A stretch of DNA of 64,000 bases from Squalus acanthias. Lineage: Eukaryota. Made by a program: the position numbers and the translations under genes. Position 1 is the stretch's first letter; the number at the start of each line of letters is the position of its first letter. Below are positions 1,908 to 63,953 of the stretch, piece after piece. The stretch is from positions 93,374,001-93,438,000 of the forward strand of contig CM059432.1 in the NCBI GenBank assembly GCA_030390025.1. Direction: 5' to 3'. The notes beneath the pieces are model-generated. The model was given only the letters and a program-made list of their open reading frames with translations, was not told the origin of the DNA and made no database searches.

Positions 1908-2800
1908 GGGGTAAAAATTCACTTGGTTGCGCCACCCGTTAGCGCCTTAAGAGGGCGCTAATGGGGCGCAAAGCCGCTAACGCCCGGGCGCAGCGATGTT
2001 TGCGCCGCTCGAGAACTTAACTTGAGATTGTGCGGCGGCGCTAAAACTTACCGCTGCGACCACCTGCGCGCGCAGATTGTGACGTCATTCCATGGTGCAA
2101 CGCCCTTGGGGCGCCCCGTAGCGGAAATTGAGTGGCGCCCCCTGCCTTACCGCCTGGCGCTTCCAACGACCAGAAGACTGGAACGCTATCAATCGCTGTG
2201 GGGCTGGGGGGGGCGCTACTTAAAGGGGGCCTCTTCTTGTCTTTTATTGTTGGTGGCATTTTTGAACTACGCATTCTGAGAGAGAGAGGGAGAGACTTCT
2301 GGAGAGATTCAACGTTGTGTGAAGGAGTTTTGGGTACTGAGCAGCACTTTGCAGGTTCATTTTGATTTGCCATTCCTTGTATCGATTTAGCAGAGACCGT
2401 GGGAGCTGCACTCTGAGCTCTTTGCCTGGTGCTCTCCATTGTTCTTTCCAGCACATTTGATGTGCAAGTCTCTCCAGGCCGAGATTCAAGGCAGCAATGA
2501 ACAGGATGTGGATGGAAAGCAAGATTAACCATCCCCTTTAAGAACTGGCCCGTGCCATTGTGTGTGTGTTCCATTGCTGACTGACATTACATGAGCTTCG
2601 CCAGCGCTCCGAGTTAGCGCCTCACTGCTCGGCCTTTGCGCCTTAAGAGAGGTGTGCAGCGCCTGATTTAGCGCTCCACTCACCTCCCGGGGCGGTAAAA
2701 GTGAAGTTTCCCGTCAGTGCCGATAATTAGCGCCAGGCGCTAATATTTGCGTCTGGACGATATTTGCGCCCCAAATGGGGCGCGACCTAATTTCTACCCC
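1908..2800 (-). mobile_element. Non-autonomous internal-deletion derivative of the Harbinger family at 19926-24102
   Basis: TIR GGGGTAAAAATT/GGGGTAGAAATT and TTT TSD (1905-1907, 2801-2803). Both ends are collinear with the autonomous copy in opposite orientation. Removing it restores CR1 KALCLNARS. Confidence 0.9.
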
Positions 2801-18265: not shown

Positions 18266-18402
18266 TGAAAAAACTGTCATCTTTTCCCCTCTGATTATTT
18301 GAAAAAACATATAGACGTTACACCTATATGACAGATTACAGAATAAAAAAATACATAAACTGGAAGACTACAAACATCATACGAATGTAGAATGCCAAGA
18401 AA

Positions 18403-18712
18403 GAACATAAGAACATAAGAAATAGGAGCAGGAGTAGGCCAATTGGCCCCTCGAGCCTGCTCCGCCATTCAATAAGATCATGGCTGATCTGATCCTAACC
18501 GCCAATCTACTATCACAGAACCATCTCCTGAACCTAACAGAATTGGACACACGAAATAGGAGCAGGATCAGGCTACACGGCCCCTGGGCCTGCTACGCTA
18601 CCCACAGGGCCATGACCGATCCGAACCTAGACTCATGTCCAAATTCCTGCCCGCTCCCCGTAACCCTTAATTCCCTTTACTTCTAGGAAACTGTCTATTT
18701 CTGTTTTAAATT
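18403..18712 (-). mobile_element. CR1 3' end, subfamily with duplicated 3' UTR module
   Basis: Near-identical to 34187-34490, with two AAATAGGAGCA(G/T)GA modules. Confidence 0.85.
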
Positions 18713-20285
18713 TTAAAGCTCTGTTTATATATTAGAATGATACTGGTAGAATAAAATTGATAAAGCATAGCACACCTGCAGTATTAGACAAGTATTTAAT
18801 TTTTTCCTCAAATAAAATGTATCATTGAGAATATTTGAATCAGTAATATATATATATATATATATATAATATAATATATATATATTTTATAAAGGTAAGA
18901 GGTATTAAATAAGAATATTCTTGTCTTAAGCATATTTACAATATGTCAGCTCCTCCCTAAAACGTTAATATCTTTAAGAATTTTTAAAAAAGAAACCATA
19001 ATTTATAATTTTTGGTTACAAGTAGGAATAACATATTTATTCTATTTGAATGATTATATAGTGACTCTGTATCATTGTAAAATATAATTTGATAAACTGG
19101 ATACAAAACTGATTCTTGTGGGTTTTTTCAAAAAACTGTATTGTTCAAACTAAATTGTTAGGATGCTGTTTTAGTTTATTATATTACCAAATGAATTAAA
19201 AAAAATGAAAAATACAAGGTTTAAAGGGATTTCCCATCTGTGATGATTTTTTATTTTGCTTTTTTAAACATTTCATATTATGTCAAACCATTTGGTCTAA
19301 TTTTTCTTCTCAGACTTAAGATTAGAGTTCTGTTCAAGGAGGCAAAGGGTATATAACTGGGATGGTGGTAGGTATATGACTGGGAGCTGGTAATAAGCCT
19401 TATTATCGGAGATATCAAAAAGAGAGTTCTCCAAAAAAGGTAATTTAAAGACAGAAATATAACAACATAATGAAGTTTGGGGAAGAGGGACATTATGGGA
19501 CTGAGATGGGCTGTTCACACCTGGGAAAAGAAGAACAGCACAAAGCTGGGAGAGAATTTTTTTTTAATTCTCAGGTATAATGCCCCCCTTGGCTAACTAA
19601 GGAAGTAAAGGATGGTATCAAAGTGAAAACAAAAGCATACAATGTTGCGAAGAATAGTGAAAGGCCAGAGGATTGGGAAATTTTTAAAAAACAGCAAAGG
19701 ACAACTAAAAAAATGATAAAGAGAGAGAAGATAGCTTATGAGAGTAAGCTAGCATGAAATATAAATATAAAAAAGCTTCTACAGGTATATAAAAAGGAAG
19801 AGAGTAGCTAAAGTAAACGTTGGCCCCCTAGAGGATGAGTCTGGGGAATTAATAATGGGAAACAGGGAAATGGCAGAGACTTTAAACAAATATTTTGCAT
19901 CGGTCTTCACAGTAGAAGACACTAAGGGGGAAAAATTCAGTCGCGCCCCATTTGGGGCGCAAATATCGTCCGGGCGCAAAAATTAGCGCCTGGCGCTAAT
20001 TATCGCCACTGACTGGAAACTTCACTTTTAACGCCCCGGGAGGTGATTGGAGCGCTAAATCAGGCGCTGCACACCTGTCTTAAGGCGCAAAGGCCGAGGA
20101 GTGAGGCGCTAACTCAGAGAGTGAGCGCAGCGCAGGTGCTGCCAGTTAGCGAGGGAACACAGACACACTGGCGCCGGCCAGTTCTTAAAGGGGGGGGGGG
20201 CGATCTTGCTCCCCAGCCACACCCTGCTCATTGCAGCCTTGAATCTCGGCCTGGAGAGACCTGTGAATCCATTTTCCAGCCAAGG

Positions 20286-22129
20286 ATGGAGAGGGTGAGA
20301 GAACGAGCTGAGCGCTTCACCGAGCGGGCCTTGGATGCTCTGGTTGGCGCGGTGGAGCGCCGAAGAGCAATACTGTACCCAGAGAGTGGCAGGAGGCCTT
20401 TGCCGCGCGACTACAGAAGAGTGTGGAGGGAGGTGGCTCAGCGCGTCTCCTCCAGGAGCATGGTGCCCAGGACCCATGTCCAATGCCGGAAAAAGTTCAC
20501 CGACCTCACTCGGGTCATCAGGGTGAGTGGCTTTTTTGCAATACCTCTCCATCCCTCCATCTCAACCTCACTCTATGGCCAGAGGGTCTTAAAACCACAA
20601 TTAACAACATTCATCCAACACCTATGGCCCTTTCATGAAGCACACACACACATTCCATACTTTGCATACAGTAAGGGCTATTCACCTATGGGAGGCACAT
20701 CAGGCAAGACCATGGCTGTATACAGTAAGGGCTATTCACCTATGGGAGGCACATCAGGCAAGACCATGGCTGTATACAGTAAGGGCTATTCACCTATGGG
20801 AGGCACATCAGGCAAGACCATGGCTGTATATTTACTCAGACGCCGTCCTTTTTCTTGCAGGCCAAGCTGGTGCATAATAGGAGACAGCAGCAACGGACAG
20901 GTGGAGGGCGGCCTCAGCTGCAACCCCTCAGCGATCTTGAGGAGCGCGTCCACAGGATTGTGGCAAGCCGGGTGATCGGTCCCGTCACCACTGGAGACGC
21001 TGACCCCGTTCTGGACAGCAATGGTAAGGTCATCACCTTTTTGTCCTCTGTCCTTCCACTTGTCCCTCACAACACCAGCCTTTGACACTTTCAATCCAAC
21101 TTACTAACTCGCTGCACTTATTCCTCCCTTACTGCCACCCTGTCCTCACGCTAAAGCCACTCTTGTACCTCCCTGCTTTCAGATGGTGATTCACCAGCTG
21201 AGGAGACGGGCCCTGAAGCTGCCAGTGGGAGTGAAGCTGCAACCGAGGAGGAAGAGGAAGCCGGAGCATCAGTGCCACCCTCTCCCGAGGAAGCCCATGC
21301 CGACACTGGGAACACGCCTTCCCTGGAGGGGAGCAGGGGGGAAGGGTCTGATGAGGGTGAAGCTCCAGGACCCAGCGGGCTGCAGCAACGCGATGGGGGT
21401 AGGGAAGCTCGGGGGCCTTCTCCCCGGAGGGAGAGTATGCCAGCGAGTCCTGCTGCACTGGACGCAGAGGAGGAGCGGCTGATCGCAGAAATGAACACCC
21501 AGGCGGTGGGCATGCACACTGAGCTCATGGCTGCAGTGGGTAGGGTGCCCGAATGCATTGAAGCACTGGCAAGGAGTGTGGAGCACTTCGCTGCAGCGCA
21601 GGCGGATGCGACACTGAAGCTCAGTGCTGCAATTCAATCTCAGACTGCTCTCATGCAGACTCAGATTGAGGCCACGCGAGCACTGTCTGCTGCCATCCTT
21701 GCTGGTTCGTTCACATTTCCCCGGGGCTCTCACCGCGCCGCAGCAGGCCAGCAATCTGTGCTCCAGCAGATTGCTCCGGATGCTGAGGTGCTGCCCCGTG
21801 GGAGTGCCAGTGTGCCGGTCGAGCAGGGAGTTGCTGTCCTCGCTCAAGATGACAGCATTCCTGCTGCCACCACTGTCACTTCTCCACTGCAGTTGCCACC
21901 GCCTGTAGGACAGACTGCTGCCGCCCATGCAGAGTTGGTGCAGTCTGCAGCCGGGCCCTCCAGGCCCAGAACTGGTCGAGGCCGTCCCTCAAGGGCATCT
22001 GCATTGTCAGGGCCTGACAGTCAGCAGCCTTCCACCAGCCTTGCTGCAGCCACTGAGGTCCCATTGCGGAGGAGCAGTAGGGTAAGAAGGGGGGAAGGGC
22101 GCACGGTAAGGAGTTCACCCTCGATGTAG
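20286..22129 (+). CDS. Harbinger Myb/SANT-like DNA-binding protein; predicted exons 20286-20522, 20861-21023, 21183-22129 (448 aa)
   Basis: RF...L..LV...W.EVA.RVS...RT..QCRKKF.DL Myb/SANT-like motif, then TGGG. Donors GTGAGT (20523) and GTAAGG (21024), acceptors TTTCTTGCAG and CTGCTTTCAG. Phases 0 and 1 join into one 1347-nt open frame. Confidence 0.88.
20667..20830. repeat. Three exact 54-bp tandem units in intron 1 of the Myb-like gene
   Basis: TACAGTAAGGGCTATTCACCTATGGGAGGCACATCAGGCAAGACCATGGCTGTA at 20667, 20721 and 20775. Confidence 0.95.
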
Positions 22130-22512
22130 GAGGTGTGACAAAATGCTGGTCATTTTTTTATTAAAGGCCGAGGTTCGTGGTCAAACTTTTGTTGAGTGTT
22201 TTGCACATGATCTCCAGGTTGTGAGAACCAGTTATGGTAATGACTGTTTATTTGTGTTTATTTGTATGAGTTTGTCATGAAGAAATGACACACACAGAGT
22301 TTGTAAAATAAATAAGTTTTGGTACTCAAAATATACATGTTTGGTGTTCGGAATCATTGGTGCCTTGGCCGGCTTAGGGGTTGCGTGTTGGGTTCATTCA
22401 TGCTGTTCTCAATGGCAGAAGCCATTTCCACAGCAGGGGCCTAGAAGCGGCTTGCTATCAGCCGCTGATGGACGGCCCTTGCAGTTTCACCATTGTGGGC
22501 CGCCCTCACGCC

Positions 22513-23592
22513 TTAGTGCTGCTGCTGATCATCCTCCTCCTCCTCTTCCTCCTCCTCCTCTGGTGGTGCTCCAAGGCCTGGTGGCATTGGCTGGGTCCTG
22601 AGGATTGCCATGTTATGCAGCATGCAGCACACAACTACGATGTTGGAAACTCGCTCAGGCGAGTACTGCAGGGCTCCTCCAGAATGGTCGAGACAGCGGA
22701 ACCGTTGCTTGAGCACGCCAATTGTGTGCTCCACGATGTTCCTGGTAGCTTGATGGCTCTCGTTGTACCGCAGCTCAGCAGGGGTGTTGGGCGTACGGAG
22801 CGGTGTCATCAGCCAGGTGCTCAGTGGATACCCCTTGTCCCCAAGAAGCCAACCAACTGGCTGATGCGGTGCCTCGAAAAGTTCTGCCACAGTAGTCTGG
22901 CGCAGGATGAAAGCATCGTGGCAGCTGCCAGGATAGTGGGCATTGACAGCGAGTATCAGCTGTCTGTGGTCACAGACCAACTGAACATTCAAGGAATGGA
23001 ACCCCTTTCTGTTCCGGAAATCCTCGGCATTCTCATGCGGAGCACGCAAAGCCACATGCGTGCAGTCAATGGCGCCCTGCACCATGGGGAAGCCCGCTAT
23101 CCTCGCAAAGCCCAGAGTGCGTTTTTGCTGCTTGTCTGGGGTCATGGGGAAAGAGATGAACTCTCGTCTCCTTTTAAAGAGGGCATTTGTGACCTTCCGG
23201 ATGCAGCAATGCACCGCTAACTGGGAGATATTGGCGATGTCCCCAACAGCAGATTGAAATGAGCCAGTAGCATAAAAGTTCAGAGCCACTGTGACCTTCA
23301 CTGCCACCGACAGAGACGTCCTGGAACTCAGTTGAGGCTGCAGATCTGGCTGCAGCAGGTGGCAGAGCTCAGTGACCACCTCCTTGCTGAAGCGCAGCCT
23401 TCGCAGACACTGCTCCTCAGACATATGAATGTAGGAGAGCTGTTCACGATATACCCTGGGAGGGTAAGCTCTCCTGTAGAGACGCCTGTTGGCCCTCCTC
23501 CGTCTGGCCATCATTGCCACTCTCTCTCTGCGTCTCTGTCTCCTCCGATTCAGCTGGCGCAGGACGACGTCCCCCATCAGTGCAGCCCCCAT
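22513..23592 (-). CDS. Harbinger DDE transposase (HARBI1-family), 359 aa from first ATG
   Basis: Uninterrupted ORF with LRF, VALNFYATG, GAIDCTH, NRKGFHSLNVQ, PGSCHD, LLGDKGY and RNIVEHTIGVLKQRFRCL motifs, plus an acidic tail. Confidence 0.95.
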   Translation of the reverse strand: MGAALMGDVVLRQLNRRRQRRRERVAMMARRRRANRRLYRRAYPPRVYREQLSYIHMSEEQCLRRLRFSKEVVTELCHLLQPDLQPQLSSRTSLSVAVKVTVALNFYATGSFQSAVGDIANISQLAVHCCIRKVTNALFKRRREFISFPMTPDKQQKRTLGFARIAGFPMVQGAIDCTHVALRAPHENAEDFRNRKGFHSLNVQLVCDHRQLILAVNAHYPGSCHDAFILRQTTVAELFEAPHQPVGWLLGDKGYPLSTWLMTPLRTPNTPAELRYNESHQATRNIVEHTIGVLKQRFRCLDHSGGALQYSPERVSNIVVVCCMLHNMAILRTQPMPPGLGAPPEEEEEEEEEDDQQQH

Positions 23593-25970
23593 ATCTCTTA
23601 GCAAGCAAAGTTATGAAGGCCAGAAACCAAAGTACCAGCGAAGTTAGGATGAGTAGCCAAAACTACCTCACACAGCGTTGACTCAATGCAGAAGTCTCTC
23701 TTTCTCTCTCTCCGAATCTCTCTCTCTCTCTCAGAACGAGTGGTGCAAAAATGTCCACCACAGAGAAAGACAGGAAGAGGCCCCCTTTAAATAGCGCCCC
23801 CCCCAGCCCCACAGCGATTGATAGCGTTCCACTCTACCGATCGTTGGATGCGCCAGGCGGTAAGGATGGGGGCGCCACTGAAATTCTGCTCCGGGGCGCC
23901 ACAAGGGCATTGCACTCTCGTATGACGTCACAATCTGCGCGCGCAGGAGATCGCGGCGATAAAGTTTAGCGCCGCCGCAAAATGTCTAGTTAAGTTCGCG
24001 AGCGGTGCAAACATTGCTGTGCCCAGGCGCTAGCTGCTTTGCGCCCCATTAGCGCCCTCTTAAGGCGCTAACGGGAGGCGCAACCAACTGAATTTTTCCC
24101 CCTAAAAGCATCCCAATAATGGATAATCAAGGGGCTATTGGGGTGGGGGGGGGGGGGAACTTAAAACAATCACTATCACTAGAGAGAAAGTACTAGGCAA
24201 ACTAATGGGACTAAAGGTGGACAAGTCCCCTGGACCCGATGGCCTGCATCCTAGAGTCTTAAAAGAGGTGGCTGCAGAGATAGTGGATGCATTGGTTGTA
24301 ATCTACCAAAATTCCCTGGATTCTGGAGAGGTCCCAGCGGACTGGAAAACCGCAAATGTAACGGCCCTGTTTAAGAAAGGAGGGAGACAGAAAGCAGGCA
24401 ACTATCGACCAGTTAGCCTAACATCTGTCATTGGGAAAATGCTGGAGTCCATCATGAAGGAAGTGGTAGCAGGACATTTAGAAAATCATAATAGTCAAGC
24501 AGAGTCAGCATGGTTTTATGAAAGGGAAATCATATTTGACAAATTTGCTGGAATTCTTTGAGGATGTAATGAGCAGGGTGGATAAAGGGGAACCAGTAGA
24601 TGTCGTGTATTTGGATTTCCAGAAGGCATTCGATAAGGTGCCACATAAAAGGTTACTACACAAGATAAGAGCTCACGGGGTTGGGGGTAATATATTAGCA
24701 TGGATAGAGGATTGGCTAACTAACAGAAAACAGAGAGTTGGGATAAATGGGTCAATTTCAGGTTGGCAAATTGTAACTAGTGGGGGGCTGCAGGGATCAG
24801 TGCTAGGGCCTCAACTATTTACAATCTATATTAATGACTTGGATGAAGGGACTGAGTGTAATATAACCAAATTTGCTGATGATACAAAGATAGGTGGGAA
24901 GGCAAATTGTGTGGAGGACGCAAAGAATCTCCAAAGGGATATAGATAGGCTAAGTGAGTGGGCAAAATTCTGGCAGATGGAGTTTAATGTGGGAAAATGC
25001 CAGGATATCCACTTTGGTAGGAAAAATAAAAAAGCAAATTATTATTTAAATGGGGAGAGATTACAAATGCTGAAGTACAGAGGGATCCTTGCACATGAAT
25101 CACAAAATGTTAGCATGCAGGTACAACAAGTAATTAGGAAGGCAAATGGAATGTTGGCCTTTAATGCAAAGGGAATGGAGTATAAAAGTAGGGAAGTCCT
25201 ATTACAACTGTACAGGGCGTTGGTGAGACCACACCTAGAGTACTGCATACAGTTTTGGTCTCCTTATTTAAGGAAGGATATACTTGCATTGGAGGCAGTT
25301 CAGAGAAGGTTCACTAGGTTGATTCCGGAGATGAAGGGGTTGTCTTATGAAGAAAGGTTGAGCAGTTTGGGCCTATACTCATTGAAGTTTAGAAGAATGA
25401 GAGGGGATCTTATTGAAACATATAAGATTCTGAAGGGGCTTGACACAGTAGATGCAGAGAGGATGTTAATAATTCCCTCGTGGGGGAATCTAGAACTAGG
25501 GGACATAATTTCAGAATAAGGGGGCACCCTTTTAAATCAGAAATGAGGAGGAATTTCTTCTCTGAGGGTCGTGAATCTCTGGAATTCTCTTCCTCAGGGA
25601 GCTGTGGAAGCTGGGTCATTGAATATATTCAAGGTGGAGATAGACGGATTTTTCAAAGGTAAGGGAGTCAAGGGTTATGGGGAGCGGGCAGGGAAGTAGA
25701 GCTGAGGCCAAGATCAGATCAGCCTACATCTTATGATCTTGGTATAGCAAGAGTTGGACTAATTCTCAAATGCCACAATATAACATTGGCAGAGTTATGC
25801 CATTTTTCAGTAGGAGGAATAACTTGGCGATGCACACAAAGTAAGTTAGGGTGATGGCAAATATGACTCCCAGGAATTTTTATTCCAGAGAGATCATCTT
25901 GACATGAATTAAAAGCAAACTTCACAGGGCTATAATATTAAAACAGAAACAAATCACATTAAAATACAAC

Positions 25971-26410
25971 GGGGGAAAAATTTGGTTGATTTGCGCCCTA
26001 AGAGGGCTAATGGGGCACAAAGCAACTAGCGCCTGGGCGCGGCGCGACTAACGCCGCCCGCAAAATTTAGTGGGAGGTTAGCGGCGGTGGTAAGTGTTAG
26101 CGCCCCGCGCGGCCGGCAATGACGTCATCGCCATGCGCAGCACCCTGGCCTCGATCTTCGGTAGCGCCCCGGCCGCGATCTTCGGTAGCGCCCCCTGACT
26201 TACCACCGGACGCTATGTCCGACGGGGTCAGGGGGGCGTACCTACGGCCAGGGCGGCGCAAATTAAAGGGAAGGTGCCGGGTGGCCATTTTCATTGCTGG
26301 CCGCCTGCCAGCATCTACCCGCTTTGCCGTCCCCGGCCTTCTGTGAAGCCCCCCCACCCCCCGCAGAGTATCGGCTGCGCTCCGTGAGCCCGGCACTTCT
26401 CTTTTGCCAG
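25971..26410. mobile_element. Truncated Harbinger-type MITE related to 63374-63953
   Basis: Starts GGGGGAAAAATTTGGTTGATTTGCG with TTAGCGCC-type subterminal motifs. No second terminus found. Confidence 0.7.
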
Positions 26411-34013: not shown

Positions 34014-34186
34014 TATCTCGGCACAATCCCAGCCCGGCATGAGGTTGAAATGGCCATCCGACAGCTGAAAAACAACAAAGCTTCCGGAGCAGATGAAATC
34101 CCCGCCGAAGTACTAAAGCGTGGCAGAGAAGTACTCTTGGCGCAAATCCATGACATTATCTCCCTTATCTGGAAGGAGGAGAGCAT

Positions 34187-34862
34187 AAGAACATAAGAAA
34201 TAGGAGCAGGAGTAGGCCAATTGGCCCCTCGAGCCTGCTCCGCCATTCAATAAGATCATGGCTGATCTGATCCTAACCGCCAATCTACTATCACAGAACC
34301 ATCTCCTGAATCTAACAGAATTGGACACACGAAATAGGAGCATGATCAGGCTACACGGCCCCTGGGCCCGCTCCGCTACCCACAGGGCCATGACCGATCC
34401 GAACCTAGACTCATGTCCAAATTCCTGCCCGCTCCCCGTAACCCTTAATTCCCTTTACTTCTAGGAAACTGTCTATTTCTGTTTTAAATTTATGTAATGA
34501 TGTAGCTTCTACAGCTTTTTGGGGCAGCATATTCCATGGACCTACCACCCTCTGAGTGAAGTAGTTCCTTCTCATCTCAGTTTTGAAAGAGCAGCCCCTT
34601 ATTCTAAGACTATGCCCCCTAGTTCTAGTTTCACCCATCATTGGGAACATCCTCCCCGCATCCACCCGATCCAACCCCTTCACAATCTTATATGTTTCAA
34701 TAAGATCGCCTCTCATTCTTCTGAACTCCAATGAGTAGAGTCCCAATCTACCCAACCTCTCCTCATATGTCCATCCCCTCATCCCCGGGATTAACCGAGT
34801 GAACCTTCTTTGTACTGACTCGAGAGCAAGTATGTCTTTTCTTAAGTATGGACACCAAAACT
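34187..34862 (-). mobile_element. CR1 3' fragment with duplicated 3' UTR module
   Basis: Open RT C-terminal frame, TSD GCAT, near-identical to 18403-18712. Confidence 0.9.
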
Positions 34863-46080: not shown

Positions 46081-46494
46081 GGACCTCATTTACAAAAAAG
46101 TCACTGATTTTACTTGGAATCTTTATACAATGTTCTGTTTGACAAAGAAATACTTCTGGATATGGCTCTATGATGCCTTTATTCTTCAGTATTCATCTAA
46201 AAAATACATTTGTAATTAAAAAGAAAGAAAAAGATTTGTTTAAAGTGCTATGCAATGGTTGCTTTTATTTGGAGCTGCAATGCTCACATGTTTAAGGTGA
46301 GACACTGAAATATGGACATTTCTTCATTTGGCCTCGGCTCTCAAAACCCTTTACTACTCACTACTTTTAGTTGACCGTGGAGGTGTGGGGGGTTGTTCCC
46401 GTCATATTTGAGGAAATAAAACATGGAATGATGAAAGGTCCTTTGACCCATCAAGTTTTACTTATCCTCTCGCTGCAGCAGCAGCAGCAGCAGT

Positions 46495-47180
46495 GAGAGG
46501 ATAAAGAGCAGCTCGAGAGTGGACCTGAATTAAAGCAGCGGCAGCAGCGAGAGGATAAAGAGCAGCCCGAGAGTGGACCTGAATTAAAGCAGCGGCAGCG
46601 GCGAGAGGATAAAGAGCAGCCCGAGAGTGGACCTGAATTAAAACAGCGGCAGCAGCGAGAGGATAAAGAGCGGCCCGAGAGTGGACCTGAATTAAAGCAG
46701 CGGCAGCAGCGAGAGGATAAAGAGCAGCTCGAGAGTGGACCTGAATTAAAACAGCGGCAGCAGCGAGAGGATAAAGAGCGGCCCGAGAGCGGACCTGAAT
46801 TAAAGCAGCGGCAGCGGCGAGAGGATAAAGAGCGTCCCGAGAGTGGACCTGAATTAAAGCAGCGGCAGCAGCGAGAGGATAAAGAGCAGCTCGAGAGTGG
46901 ACCTGAATTAAAGCAGCGACAGCGGCGAGATGATAAAGAGCGTCCCGAGAGTGGACCTGAATTAAAGCAGCAGCAGCGGCGAGAGGATAAAGAGCGTCCC
47001 GAGAGCGGACCTGAATTAAAGCAGCGGCGAGAGGATAAAGTGCAGCCCAAGTGTGGACCTGAATTAAAGCAGCGGCGAGAGGATAAAGTGCAGCCCAAGT
47101 GTGGACCTGAATTAAAGCAGCGGCGAGAGGATAAAGAGCAGCCCAAGTGTGGACCTGAATTAAAGCAGCGGCAGCAGCGA
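46495..47180. repeat. Minisatellite of about 13 units (54 and 48 bp) directly upstream of CR1 ORF1
   Basis: Unit GAGAGGATAAAGAGCAGCCCGAGAGTGGACCTGAATTAAAGCAGCGGCAGCAGC. Starts every 54 bp from 46495 to 46981, then at 47029, 47077 and 47125. Confidence 0.95.
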
Positions 47181-49443
47181 GGCTCCGATTCAAAAACAAC
47201 AAAAAAATTCAAGAGTGACGTCACAGGAGAGCAGGTAGGTGATTTGTTGCTGAGTATTCCAGCTTTTTTTTGCTCTCTAAGTTAGAGAAGGGGGTTAAAT
47301 TAAGAGCTGAGAAACTGTAACGTGCTAGTACATATTTAATTAATAACAAATTAATAACTTAAACGAGATAATATAATCAAACAATAAAACGAAAATATCA
47401 ATTGAATAATAGCTTTAACTAATTAATGAATAAATAAAACAAGGTTAGAGGTGGCAGGGCAGGCGGTGTGTCGTAACTGCAGCATGTGGAAGCTTGTGGC
47501 GAGCATCGCGATCCTGAGCAACCACATCTGCAGTGACTGCAACTCGAGGAACTTCGGCTCAGAGTTGTTGAGCTGGAGTACAAGGTGCAGACATTGCGAT
47601 GCAACAGGGAGGGCGAGAGTTACCTGGATACAGTCACACCCTTTAGGTTAAGTAGTACTTTCATCAGTGGTCAGGGGCAGGAGGATGTGACTGCGAGTCA
47701 GGCATGTAGTGATGGAGGAGCCTCAGCCCTTGACCTTGTCCAACAGGTACGAGGTACTTGCTACCTGTATGGATGAGGAAAAGGACTGCAGGGAGGATGG
47801 GCAAACTGGCCACGACACCGTGGTACAGGGGGCCATCCAAGTGGGGGGGAGAAGGATGGAATGTGGTAGTATTAGGGGACAGTATAGTCAGAGGGATAGA
47901 TACTGTTCTCTGCAGCCACAAGAGTCCCGAAGGCTGTGTTGCCTGCCCGGTGCCAGGGTTAAGGATATCTCCTCGCGGCTGGAGAAGAAATTGGAGTGGG
48001 AGGGGGAGGATCCAGTTGTCGTGGTCCATGTAGGAACCAACGACATAGGTAGAACGAAGAATGAAGTTCTGCTGAGGGAGTTTGATGAGCCAGAGTCTAA
48101 ATTCATAAGTAGAACCTCAAGGGTAATAATCTCTGGAGTACTAACTGAGCCACGTGCAAATTGGCATAGGGTCAAGCAGATCAGAGAGTTAAATGCGTGG
48201 CTCATAGAGTGGTGTGGGAAGAAGGGGTTTCAATTCATGGGGCACTGGCACCAGTACTGGGGAAAGAGGGAGCTGTTCCGTTGGGACGGGCTATACTTAA
48301 ACTGGGCTGGGACCAGCATCCTGGCGAATCGAATAACTAGGGCTGGAGATAGGGCTTGAAACTAAAAAAGGGAGGGGGGGGGGGGGTCAGGTGAGGGGAT
48401 ATTTAGAAATATGAAGAGAAAGGTCAAGGCAATAGAGAAGTGTAGCGATTTGGATAAAAATAAGCAGAGTGTGACAGGAAGGGACAGAGAGTTTAACAGT
48501 AGCAGTGCTGCAGAGAATAAGGTCAAAGCAGGGAATAATGGTAAAAAATTAAATTAAAGGCTCTTTATCTGATTGCATGAAGCATTCTTAACAAGATAGA
48601 CGAACTAGTGGCACAAATAGAGATAAATGGGTTTGATCTAATAGCCATTACAGAGACCTGGTTGCAAGGTGGCGAAGGTTGGGAACTAAATGTTCCAGGG
48701 TACTTGACGTTTTGAAAAGACAGGCAGAATGGAAAAGGAGGGTGAGTAGCCCTGATAATAAAGGATGACATAAGGACAGTAACGTGAAAGGATCTCGGCT
48801 TGGAAGATCAGGAAGTAGAATCAGTATGGGTGGAGATAAGGAATAACAAGGGACAGAAAACACTGGTGGGAGTAATATATAGGCCCCCTAACAGTAGCTA
48901 TACCGTTGGACAGACTATTAATCAAGAAATAGTAGAAGCTTGTAACGAAGGTAATGCAATAATCGTGGGGGACTTTAATCTTCATGTAGACTGGACAAAT
49001 CAAATTGGCAAAGGTAGTCTGGAGGACAAGTTCCTGGAATGCATTTGGGACAGTTTCCTAGAACAATGCGTCATGGAACCAACCAGGGAACAGACTATTT
49101 TAGATCTTGTATTGTGTAATGAGCCAGGGTTAATTAGAAATCTCATAGTAAAGGATCCTCTGGGGCAGAGAGATCATAATGTGATAGAATTTCACATTAA
49201 GTTTGAGAGTAACTTGCCTAGGTTCGAAACTTGAGCCTTAAACTTAAATAAAGCCAATTAAATAGGTATGAGGGGCGAGTTGGCTAAGGTAGATTGGAAA
49301 ATTAGATTAAAAGGTATGGCGGTAGATAAGCAGTGGATAGCATTTAAAGAAATATTTCATAATTCTCAACAAAAATACATTCCATTGAGAAACAAAAACT
49401 CCACAGGAAAAGTGATCCATCCTTGGCTAACTAAAGAAACATT

Positions 49444-50187: not shown

Positions 50188-53100
50188 ATTAGATTGAAAG
50201 AAGAAGAATAGTAGTAAGCCTGAGGATTGGGAGAGTTTCAGAAACCAGCAATGGATGACCAAAAATTTGATAAAAAGGGAAAAAATAGAATGAGAGAAAA
50301 CTAGTAAGAAAAACAAAAAGTTTGTAAGAGCTTCTACAAGTATGTAAAAAGCAAGAGAGTAGGTAAGTGTTGGTCCCTCAGAGGCTGGGACAGGAGAAAT
50401 TATTATGGAGATTAAGGAAATGGCAGAAATGTTAAACAAATACTTTGTATCTGTCTTCACAGTAGAAGACACAAAAAGCATACCAAAAATAGTGGGGAAC
50501 CAAGTGGTTAATGAGAGTGAGGAACTTAAAGTAATTAAGATCAGTGGAGAAAAAGTACTTGAGAAACTAATGGGACTAAAAGCTGAAAAATCCTCTGGAC
50601 CTGATGGACTACATCCTAGGATTCTAAAAGAAGTTGCTGCAGAGACAGTGGATGCATTGGTTGTGATCTTCCAAAATTCCATAAATTCTAGAATGGTCCC
50701 AGCGGATAGGAAGGTAACAAATGTAACCTCGCTATTCAAGAAAGGAGGAAGAGAAAACAGGGAACTACAGGCCAGTTAGCCTGACATCATTCATCAGGAA
50801 AATGCTGGAATCCATTATTAAGGAAGTGGTAACAGGGCACTTAGAAAATCATAATATGATTAGACAGAGTCAACATGGTTTTATGAAAGGGAAATTGTGT
50901 TTAACAAATTTATTAGAGTTTTTTGAGGATGTAACTAGCAGGGTAGATAAAGGAGAACCAGTGGATTTCCAAAACGCAATGAGGTGCCACATAAAAGGTT
51001 GTTACACAAGATAAGGGCTCATGGGGTTGGGGTGATATATTAGCATGGATAGAGGATTGGTTAACGACAGAAAAGAGAGTAGGGATAAACGGGTCATTTT
51101 CCGGTTGGCAGACTGTAACTAGTGGGGTGCTGCAAGGATCAGTGCTTGGGCCTCAGCTATATATTAATGACTTAGATGAAGGGACCGAGTGTAATGATTC
51201 CAAGTTTGCTGACGATACAAAGCTAGATGGGAAAGTAAGCGGTGAGGACACAAAGAGACTTCAAAGGGATATCAGCAGGTTAAGTGAGTGGGCAATAAGG
51301 TAGCAGATGGAGTATAATGTGGGGAAATGTGAGGTTATTCACTTTGATAGGAATAGAAAAACAGAATTTTTTTTAAATGTTGAGAAACTATTAAATGTTG
51401 GTGTTCAGAGAGATTTGGGTGTCCTCGTGCAAGAAACACAGAAAGCTAGCATGCAGGTACAGCAAGCAATAAGGAAGGCAAATGGCCTTTATTGCAAGGG
51501 GGTTGGCATATAAGAGTAAGGAAGTCTTGCTACAATTGTACAGGGCCTTGGTGAGACCACACCTGGAGTACGGTGTACAGTTTTGGTCTCCTTATCTAAG
51601 GAAGGATATACTTGCCTTGGAGGCAGTGCAACGAAGGTTCACTGGATTGATTCCTGGGATGAGAGGGCTGTCCTATGATGAGAGATTGTGTCGAATGGGC
51701 CTATACTCTCTGGAGTTTAGAAGAATGAGAGGTGATCTCATTGAAACATACAAGATTCTGAAGGGGATTGACAGGGTAGATGCTGAAAGTTTGTTTCCCC
51801 TGGCTGGAGTGTCTAGAACTAGGGGGCATAGTCTCAGGATAAGGGGTAGGCCATTTAAGGCCAAGATGAGGAGGGGTTTCTTCACTCTGAGGGCTGTGAA
51901 TCTTTGGAATTCTCTGCCCCAGAGGGCTGTGGATGCTGAGTCTTTGAGTATATTCAAGGCTGCGATAGATAGATTTTTGGACTCATGGGGAATCAAGGGA
52001 TATAGAGATTGGGCGGGAAAGTGGAGTTGAGGTCGATGATCAGCCATAATCTTATTGAATGGCGGAGCAGGCTCGAGGGGCCGTATGACCTACTCCTGCT
52101 CCTATTTCTTATGTTCTTATAACCTGCCCTGTTCTCGACTCTTCCCAATTTATTTAATCACTAAGGGAATGTTGACCACTGTTCCACTGCCGATCAGATT
52201 AATTTTTAAAATAAAAATTAACTGATAAATTGATTTAATTAAATCAAGTTATGAAAGTCTATCCTAATATTTTATATATTTCATACATTCTACTTTATAC
52301 ACTGCCAGCATTAGAATGTTTTAGATTGTTAGAACAAAGAACAGAATGAGAACAGGCCATCTAACATGTTCCTTCAACAGACCATGTACAATCTAATTTA
52401 TCATGGACTACCTAACTTGTGAAATTTCCTGAGGTAATGTCCTGTAAAATTCTCTTTAAGGTCCAAAGATAATTAAGCAGAACTCCAAACTATTAACTTT
52501 ATAATTTCCATTAACCTACTTGGTTGCTTATTTCCATGATCCCAGGAAATCTAGCAAGTATTGTTTTCCATGCAGTCTTTTAACTCCATCTGACCTTAGA
52601 TTACAACATTCAATCCTTGCTGGCTAATCTAATCTCCCGAGGGAAGGCACTGCAAAGTTCCTCCCAATTGCAAAGGTAATCAAATGAAACGGTAAAACAT
52701 CCATCTATACTTGCACTCCATTACTTGAGCCTGGCCAGACGTGGAAATGTGGTGAAGGTGATGATCCTAAAAAGGAGACTCTGGCTGAACAGTGATTTTT
52801 TTTTTAAGGAAAAAAAGTATTTTTGCTTGTAATATTTTTATTATGATTAGAAAAGGGTGTATTTTTCAGATAAATACAAAGGAGTAGGGTCACTGCTGGG
52901 CCTGACCTTGGAGTATCCTCTTTGCAATTAATTGTTCTGCAAACTTTGTTTTTAATGGTTACAGTAAAAAAGGAGCTCGAAACTTGGCAGGAAAGGTATT
53001 ATTAAATGCAATAACCTTCAAATTATGGAAACTTTTTCAGATGCCCAGATTGTTGTTGCACTCTCTTGTCTCACACTCTACAGAAGAAATACCTCAGGTT

Positions 53101-63373: not shown

Positions 63374-63953
63374 GGGGGTTTTAGCGCCCCGAAAAAGTTA
63401 GCGCCCCCGCGGCCAATTTTCCCAGGTAGTGCCCCGAGGGGGAGGAGAGGCGCTACTGGAAGCGTCTCGCGTCCCTCTTGGGACGCTGTGAGCCAATATC
63501 GCGGCGCTGTGGCATGTCGCGCCGCGGTACTGCAGGCCTTCCTCCCCTTCTTAAAGGGGAGGGGCCTGGCGCAGCACAACCCGGGGCCCAGCTGGGCCCC
63601 CGGGGATTGGGAGTGCCGGCAAATGAGCCTGGCACTCAAGAGGTGTGCCGGGCTCACGGAGAGCAGCCGGCACCCCGCGGGAGGGCTTCACGGGGGCCGG
63701 GGACAGGTGCTGGCAGGCAGCCAGCAACAAAAATGGCCGCCCGCCACCTCCCCAATATTACAGCCGGGGCGCCGTGCACGGCGATGACATCATCGTCGGC
63801 GTTGCGGCACTAACGGTTAGCGCCGCCGCTAACCTCCCGCTGAATTTCACGGGAGGCGTTAGCGGCGCCACGCCCAAGCGCTAGCTGATTTGCGCCCCGT
63901 TAGTGCCCTCTTGGGGCGCTAATGGGGTCGCAAATCAACCGAATTTAGCCCCC
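63374..63953. mobile_element. Harbinger-type MITE inserted in a CR1 3' fragment (about 63270-64000)
   Basis: GGGGG...CCCCC termini, TTG TSD and TTAGCGCC motifs. Removing it restores GATAGATTTTTGGACTCTAGG. Confidence 0.82.

Follow-up and report, generated by a model that had tools for sequence, protein, structure and literature searches.

A full-length two-gene PIF/Harbinger copy with a prematurely terminated transposase frame in Squalus acanthias

The zebrafish element Harbinger3_DR is a reconstructed transposon with two genes, terminal inverted repeats (TIRs) and 3-bp target site duplications (TSDs) of the CWG type (cited in excerpts of PMC2836001 and PMC3016246). For the rice Ping/Pong/mPing system, excerpts of two reports describe that both proteins are required for transposition, that the TSD is TAA and that short derivatives are mobilised (PMC2836001, PMC10288884). 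Mutation of a C-terminal export signal raised the activity of Ping/Pong according to an excerpt of the former (PMC2836001). In the sea krait Laticauda colubrina, 269 apparently intact copies of Harbinger-Snek, for which horizontal transfer has been argued, have been counted (excerpt of PMC8437027). HARBI1, NAIF1 and MSANTD are domesticated and represent host genes (excerpt of PMC9392472). No Harbinger was found in the elephant shark (PMC9179366), and among the matches listed for literature on Harbinger and elasmobranch transposons no paper devoted to shark Harbingers was found. Shark Harbingers look abundant yet little described.

Positions 19926-24102 (4177 bp) of the window, i.e. the whole stretch of 64,000 nucleotides that was analysed, are occupied by a full-length element sitting inside a CR1 LINE. 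Its TIRs (19926-19941 on the forward and 24087-24102 on the reverse strand) are complementary at 16 of 16 bp (100%) and are shorter than the 25-50 bp usual for PIF/Harbinger elements (PMC9179366). TAA is present directly outside both TIRs (19923-19925 and 24103-24105, forward strand), on the left immediately preceded by AGACAC. Within a span of 10 kb, perfect inverted repeats of 16 bp that are flanked by the same 3 bp were encountered a single time in the window and never in any of five base-shuffled windows. Rejoined with a single TAA, the flanks were collinear with a second CR1 copy at 50331-50619 (75% identity). The perfect TIRs and intact TSD reported in a first-pass annotation of this DNA were confirmed. 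The 5' part of the host CR1 lies to the left of 19923 and the 3' part with the reverse transcriptase (RVT_1, E 1.1e-22) at 24106-25519 on the forward strand; the LINE is decayed and all its frames carry stops. Per kb, GCGC occurs 48 times in the first 250 bp of the element, 44 times in the final 250 bp and 3.7 times in the interior, and the GCGC-rich subterminal regions (19942-20175 and 23853-24086) likely contain putative sites bound by the Myb protein. TIRs, a 3-bp TSD, a transposase of the DDE_Tnp_4/HARBI1 type, a Myb/SANT gene and a dispersed multi-copy family are found together here. To judge from its sequence, the element is a full-length two-gene PIF/Harbinger transposon, in agreement with its original identification.

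A non-autonomous relative of 893 bp (1908-2800, reverse strand, TSD TTT/AAA) is also inserted in a CR1. Its two ends match those of the element (87% and 82% identical), and it likely belongs to the same family. With Harbinger3_DR, which could be compared by description only, the element shares the DDE transposase with a Myb-like partner, the TIRs and the 3-bp TSD. Furthermore, the left flank AGACAC, present both here and in the relative, agrees at 5 of 6 bases with the published target AAACACCWGGTCTTT over its left half. In contrast, the TSDs are TAA/AAA rather than CWG, the transposase is truncated, and a natural copy is compared with a consensus. The TAA TSD, the two proteins and the short non-autonomous derivatives are reminiscent of Ping/Pong/mPing, plant elements for which, in contrast to the shark element, natural activity has been proven. 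Like Harbinger-Snek, again compared by description only, it represents a high-copy two-gene vertebrate family in which full-length copies occur alongside single-gene variants and short non-autonomous ones, but the copy studied here is broken. A domesticated gene of the HARBI1/NAIF1/MSANTD kind, which would be a single-copy host gene free of TIRs and TSDs, was considered and rejected because TIRs, a TSD, many copies and very high repeat depth are present.

Contigs from 4 of 24 listed public runs were compared with the element (approximately 55% of run X3 was read); of 187 base differences and 219 joints, 40 and 15, respectively, are tabulated. The low-share runs X19 and X20 carry no weight as evidence. 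The data point to a very high-copy Harbinger family: summed depth in X3, which is not a copy number, ranged from about 1.5e5 to 1.2e6 within the element versus 6 to 13 at the flank 19000-19401, and contigs behind 24102 carry other flanks. This flank lacked coverage in X11 and X17, which proves nothing by itself. Of the 38 positions listed within the element, 25 have a base in this copy other than that of the family majority. Among them are changes to transposase residues 89, 157 and 159, at which homologs, too, most often carry the residue of the family. At least 6 substitutions are near-private, with a depth of at most 25 for the own allele versus 7e4-9e5 for the other base. At a shark mutation rate of 7e-10 per generation, determined in one species (PMC10587355), 6 changes in 4177 bp correspond to about 2 million generations or more. 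Because near-private changes affect transposase residues 89, 157 and 159, the copy has evidently long sat in place. Bases private to this copy include those at 21242, 21541 and 23124. An empty-site joint was not found among the 15 joints listed of 219.

The Myb/SANT-like gene is located on the forward strand. Exon 1 (20286-20522, 79 codons) encodes a trihelix DNA-binding domain (Pfam Myb_DNA-bind_5, PF13873, E 5.8e-10) and is followed by the GT..AG intron 1 (20523-20860), in which a 54-bp unit is repeated 3.1 times (20666-20830), exon 2 (20861-21023), the GT..AG intron 2 (21024-21182), and exon 3 through the stop (21183-22129). Joining of the three exons gives an open frame of 448 aa. Residues 1-335 of the predicted spliced product align with the shark Myb-like protein P0121 (37% identity, E 3e-64) without gaps at both junctions, and the alignment with P0010 is likewise gap-free over junction 1. 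A protein search with exon 3 yielded 1 protein (8000 candidates scored), while none of 470 candidates was obtained for exon 1 against longer proteins. In a reading by hand of loose contig ends, the ending at 22125 is S-M-stop in this copy versus a longer, basic S-K-G-K-K-stop in other copies. The frame of the Myb gene looks intact, and of the spliceable 448-aa gene proposed earlier the GT..AG introns, the open frame and the gap-free homolog alignment stood. Of the junctions suggested for RT-PCR, neither 20522/20861 nor 21023/21183 is among the 15 joints listed of 219 from the contigs of the four runs. Pieces of X17 pass both acceptors unspliced, X14 and X17 being RNA by guess only.

The transposase frame on the reverse strand (22516-23592; PF13359, E 4.7e-42) contains the catalytic residues D176, D252 and E288. 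It had been described as uninterrupted, but after 359 aa it runs into a premature in-frame TAA at codon 360 (22513-22515, reverse strand), 23 codons ahead of the likely original stop TAG (22443-22441) in the same frame. Because the 23 open codons of this orphaned C-terminus (22441-22512 including the stop, reverse strand) encode the conserved C-terminal motif of the family, A-R-x-x-(R/H)-x-x-L-I-x-x-x-F, the region 22444-22512 is transposase coding sequence severed by the premature stop. The closest database relatives come from sharks and rays and bear the label "putative nuclease HARBI1" (NCBI/UniRef, P0001-P0120). They share at most 71% identity, the same domain and the C-terminal motif, although none is near-identical and all three catalytic residues are found in only 22 of the 56 aligned. 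At least 8 residues over positions 371-383 are present in 47 of 56 aligned homologs, and the commonest tail residues are A371 (32), R372 (33), R375 (35), L378 (31), I379 (34), and F383 (37). A profile of the homolog tails scored 19 bits (E 1e-6) with the post-stop peptide, the runner-up among 16 six-frame peptides reaching 3.3 bits. From 135 new representatives at 50% identity, 80 extend to the xxLHN motif. Half of them (40) scored at least 5 bits with the tail profile, versus 1 of 80 shuffled. Splicing around the stop was rejected, as every GT site either falls inside the conserved CCMLHN segment or precedes it, and 6-7 of 15 bases are pyrimidines at the acceptors. A metagenome match to the 20-mer adjoining the stop was also dismissed: the single locus (73% GC) has the 20-mer alone in common and represents a chance match.

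In an AlphaFold model with X at the break, residues 365-382 form a helix (block pLDDT 95-96) behind a linker of low pLDDT (50-56). The catalytic core, modelled at a mean pLDDT of 89.8, was structurally aligned (VIA-align) to piggyBac (Z 10.3, rmsd 4.9, 231 residues aligned) and Tn5 (Z 9.3, rmsd 5.7, 245 residues aligned). These matches end at residues 338-341, and the last helix is without a solved counterpart among the matches listed, which is not evidence for a new fold. A PDB sequence search with the transposase gave no match at E up to 1, and a Foldseek search with the model none at E up to 0.001. In the literature no paper was found that tests the function of the C-terminal helix. From the observed stop and the motif behind it we infer that the nonsense codon led to loss of transposase function. 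It is unlikely that the copy is still autonomous, with a 359-aa transposase that keeps the catalytic fold and a lost helix that is dispensable or inhibitory like the export signal of Ping/Pong. Such a reading is compatible with the three catalytic residues, the well-modelled core, the piggyBac and Tn5 matches that stop before the lost helix, two otherwise open frames, and the higher activity of the export-signal mutants (PMC2836001, excerpt). Moreover, tails as short as that of this copy occur in 7 of the 80 representatives and in 3 of the 14 that have all three catalytic motifs. However, the motif is retained across very distant relatives and modelled as an ordered helix, the near-private changes at residues 89, 157 and 159 come in addition, and no spliced joint is among the 15 listed of 219.

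The stop adjoins a low-complexity (TCC)n tract (22532-22560). The interval 22513-22573 was left out of the X3 contig comparison as a repeat, and no listed piece spans 22515. An error of assembly or polishing at the TAA, with a true locus that encodes the full 383-aa transposase in an intact element, is nevertheless very unlikely. The stop is in frame, clean and free of indels, and the tract does not reach into it. Near-private bases are seen in X3 at flank-like low depth (6.7 at 21531 and 22 at 23326; flank 6-9), which suggests that the assembly is faithful to this copy. Even without the stop, the copy would be aged and its activity putative.

At five or so positions (20310, 21302, 21686, 22066 and 22641), the base of this copy is a minority in X3 with much the same depth throughout (about 1.4e4-2.1e4), which points to a minor subfamily. 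The stop might accordingly mark a subfamily, either of a master copy with a short transposase spread by a borrowed enzyme or of a Myb-only helper lineage. Multi-copy variants with only the Myb or only the transposase gene have been described in sea kraits (excerpt of PMC8437027) and such single-gene variants also in C. inopinata (PMC13668399). The orphaned motif has H at position 375 versus R in 35 of 49 homologs, which could be post-stop decay. But apart from this residue the orphaned motif is preserved together with its stop, as a recent single change would predict, and we regard a stop-bearing subfamily as very improbable.

The reading of a decaying PIF/Harbinger copy that has a C-terminally cut transposase and has lost its self-mobility is therefore preferred, and we consider it quite likely as a whole. 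A single full-length member of a very abundant family would have been inserted by cut-and-paste into a TAA of an older CR1 and would have decayed since. It is established for the superfamily, and would apply here, that the product of the spliced Myb/SANT gene attaches to the ends of the element and recruits the transposase to them as well as into the nucleus. The transposase, a DDE enzyme of RNase-H fold, would then excise the element and insert it where a 3-bp target has the preferred flank, resulting in duplication of the 3 bp. The nonsense codon strips the last 24 positions of the transposase including the conserved docked helix, while the copy might still supply Myb protein. Since the transposase is clipped but nothing is missing from the cis parts (TIRs, TSD and subterminal repeats) or from the Myb frame, the copy probably can be mobilised in trans by the transposase of another copy but most likely is unable to move itself or its MITEs. 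Hence, the proposal that it possibly mobilises some local MITEs retains the likely family link to 1908-2800 and most likely loses the mobiliser. The view of an intact, potentially active element is not supported given the missing conserved helix, the many departures from the family majority and the lack of splice joints among those listed. The notion that an intact vertebrate copy is exceptional was weakened as well by the Harbinger-Snek copies in L. colubrina.

As one further decaying copy of a known transposon type, the element is of limited importance. It provides a caution for annotation: an open frame may look normal in length, retain every catalytic residue and nevertheless be truncated, which the conserved tail of the homologs alone brings to light. 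If an intact polymorphic member exists elsewhere in the genome, it would represent a two-component transposon occurring naturally in a vertebrate and might serve as a tool.

Eight labelled organisms (A-H) have runs that contain the 31-letter words of the element at shares of 0.34-0.78. In organism F, pieces of about 99% identity including the introns were found at low depth and without the unique flank of this copy. Two large runs of the same organism (X23 and X24) contained next to none of the words, and horizontal transfer to organism F was dismissed as unreproduced in them; the signal may be due to contamination or mislabelling. Slow shark evolution alone can explain the sharing among relatives. 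We therefore find it very unlikely that the family is alive in sharks and recently crossed species, with a functional clipped transposase that is perhaps freed of an inhibitory helix. If true, this would mean a natural active vertebrate Harbinger and a regulatory role for the last helix.

The two genes share a 3' region (22130-22440) with poly(A)-like hexamers at 22160 and 22307 on the forward and at 22157, 22247 and 22257 on the reverse strand. The first-pass annotation had placed a tail-to-tail arrangement with such signals on both strands at 22130-22510; layout and hexamers were confirmed, but 22444-22512 is coding and not intergenic. Because every other run listed at this place (X14, X11 and X17) has contigs with a different base at 22250, within the hexamer at 22247, this hexamer is probably not ancestral.

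The element at 19926-24102 is 4177 bp long and bears perfect 16-bp inverted repeats at both ends, with TAA adjoining on each side. The window contains a single pairing of this kind, inverted repeats with matching flanks; five base-shuffled windows gave none. Each flank is one half of a decayed CR1-type LINE (RVT_1, E 1.1e-22). Rejoined with a single TAA, the flanks align collinearly to another CR1 copy at 50331-50619; hence, the element boundaries and the TAA duplication are exact. The subterminal regions are rich in GCGC (44-48 per kb vs 3.7 in the interior). The terminal repeats, the intact TAA duplication and the full-length Harbinger identity proposed in the first-pass annotation were borne out, and the element shows every testable defining feature of PIF/Harbinger. 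It is a further member of this already known type, and its nearest protein relatives among the matches listed are from sharks and rays, on which basis the genome is described as shark-like.

The transposase frame, starting at 23592 on the minus strand, encodes 359 aa with a DDE_Tnp_4 domain (E 4.7e-42) and carries D176, D252 and E288. In a first alignment the homologs, shark and ray proteins labelled 'putative nuclease HARBI1', extended past an acidic tract into an A-R-x-x-R-x-x-L-I-x-x-x-F motif, before which the protein of the element ends. Beyond the TAA at 22515-22513 the same frame remains open for 23 more codons, which encode this motif, and closes at a TAG at 22443-22441. Four tests support the view that the TAA is probably premature. 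With a profile of homolog tails the post-stop peptide scored 19 bits (E 1e-6), and the runner-up among 16 six-frame peptides 3.3 bits. Residues aligned to 371-383 were present in 47 of 56 homologs, hand-picked from 120 listed with preference for longer ones. Within the first of these tests, 38 of the 69 homologs reaching CxxLHN contain a stricter motif pattern and 6 have tails of at most 32 residues. An independent set of 135 representatives included 80 reaching an xxLHN motif, of which 40 scored at least 5 bits with the C-terminal profile, compared to 1 of 80 shuffled sequences, and 7 were short-tailed. Among the 14 representatives with all catalytic motifs, 6 passed the tail profile and 3 had short tails. 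Many of the homolog database entries presumably are predictions on decayed copies.

In the fourth test AlphaFold, run with an X at the break, predicted a helix at 365-382 (block pLDDT 95-96, preceding linker 50-56), which has the look of a helix docking back onto the core. Solved transposases align to the model only up to about residue 341, and a published test of the C-terminal helix was not found in the literature searched. No plausible splice skips the stop codon, and the family comparison in run reads left it out, skipped as a repeat. The transposase earlier described as uninterrupted thus appears to be clipped 23 codons before its conserved end, and the element, earlier described as apparently intact and potentially active, fails as an intact autonomous copy.

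The Myb/SANT gene on the plus strand consists of exons 20286-20522, 20861-21023 and 21183-22129 with GT..AG introns, encodes 448 aa and has its Myb/SANT domain in exon 1. Residues 1-335 of the spliced product align to P0121, a shark Myb-like protein, with 37% identity (E 3e-64) and without gaps at both junctions. Hence, homology supports the open gene model, whereas splicing itself is predicted: none of the 15 joints listed, out of 219 from run contigs, matched a predicted junction, in a comparison in which the RNA status of two 'RNA?' runs was guessed. Pieces from X17, a public sequencing run, continue unspliced across both acceptors. Other copies, read by hand from loose ends in X3 and X14, have a longer basic tail at 22125, ending in S-K-G-K-K-stop versus S-M-stop in this copy. 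Intron 1 contains a 54-bp unit repeated 3.1 times with 100% match (20666-20830).

In this superfamily the Myb protein is known to bind the terminal inverted repeats and the transposase and to carry the latter into the nucleus, and transposition requires both proteins (PMC2836001, PMC9179366). The 19926-24102 copy was probably made by this two-protein mechanism and is probably still usable as a substrate. It possibly is a source of Myb protein, and it would produce a clipped transposase. Intact vertebrate Harbinger copies have been published, with 269 reported in Laticauda colubrina (PMC8437027).

The listing of base differences covers 40 of 187, and 38 of the 40 fall within the element. At 25 of these 38 positions the majority of X3 depth disagrees with this copy, and at 15 more than 90% of it does. 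Among the differences listed, at least six bases are near-private, with this copy's base at a depth of at most 25 in X3, and three transposase positions (89, 157 and 159) have lost the family residue, which is also the commonest among homologs. At 7e-10 mutations per base per generation, a rate reported for a single shark species (PMC10587355), six private changes in 4177 bp would imply about 2 million generations, a lower bound given that the count comes from the differences listed. Therefore, low divergence in a shark does not equal a recent insertion.

The queried stretch was wholly or partly present in 20 of the 24 runs listed. In eight labelled organisms 0.34-0.78 of its 31-letter words were recovered; by our arithmetic and assuming complete coverage, 0.78 corresponds to a difference of about 0.8%. 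Summed X3 depth, which is not equivalent to copy number, was four to five orders of magnitude higher within the element than in the flank at 19000-19401; this fits a very abundant family. Organism F yielded pieces of about 99% identity at depth 18-56. The share was 0.49 in its runs X11 and X12, which are of equal size, versus 0.00 in X23 and X24. This contrast may reflect contamination, mislabelling or true presence/absence. Because the signal is absent from these two other large runs, we make no claim of transfer into organism F.

A non-autonomous relative of 893 bp (1908-2800, minus strand) is located inside a CR1 element with a TTT/AAA duplication. Because it is 82-87% identical to the element, its source would be an older or sister subfamily rather than the 19926-24102 copy. 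In both, the same element end is flanked by AGACAC, a sequence that agrees in 5 of 6 bases with the left half of the target described for Harbinger3_DR (PMC3016246). A second Harbinger-type MITE family is represented at ~63376-63953, with 73% identity to the right end of the element, apparently within a CR1 3' tail and with a TTG duplication (boundaries by eye). A one-ended or truncated member at 25971-~26403 is 73-79% identical to the copy at 63.6-63.9 kb and contains an internal 24-bp duplication (26139-26194). A similar TTAAAGGGG motif, possibly a core promoter element, is found upstream of both genes at 20184-20195 (plus strand) and 23793-23783 (minus strand), and recurs in the 1908-2800 relative and in the MITE near 63550. 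A 54-bp tandem array of 13.3 copies, shifting to 48-bp units, occupies 46480-47181 on the 5' side of a CR1-like element, with several reading frames open. The 300-bp repeats at 18402-18701 and 34180-34479 are 98% identical and younger than most repeats of the window.
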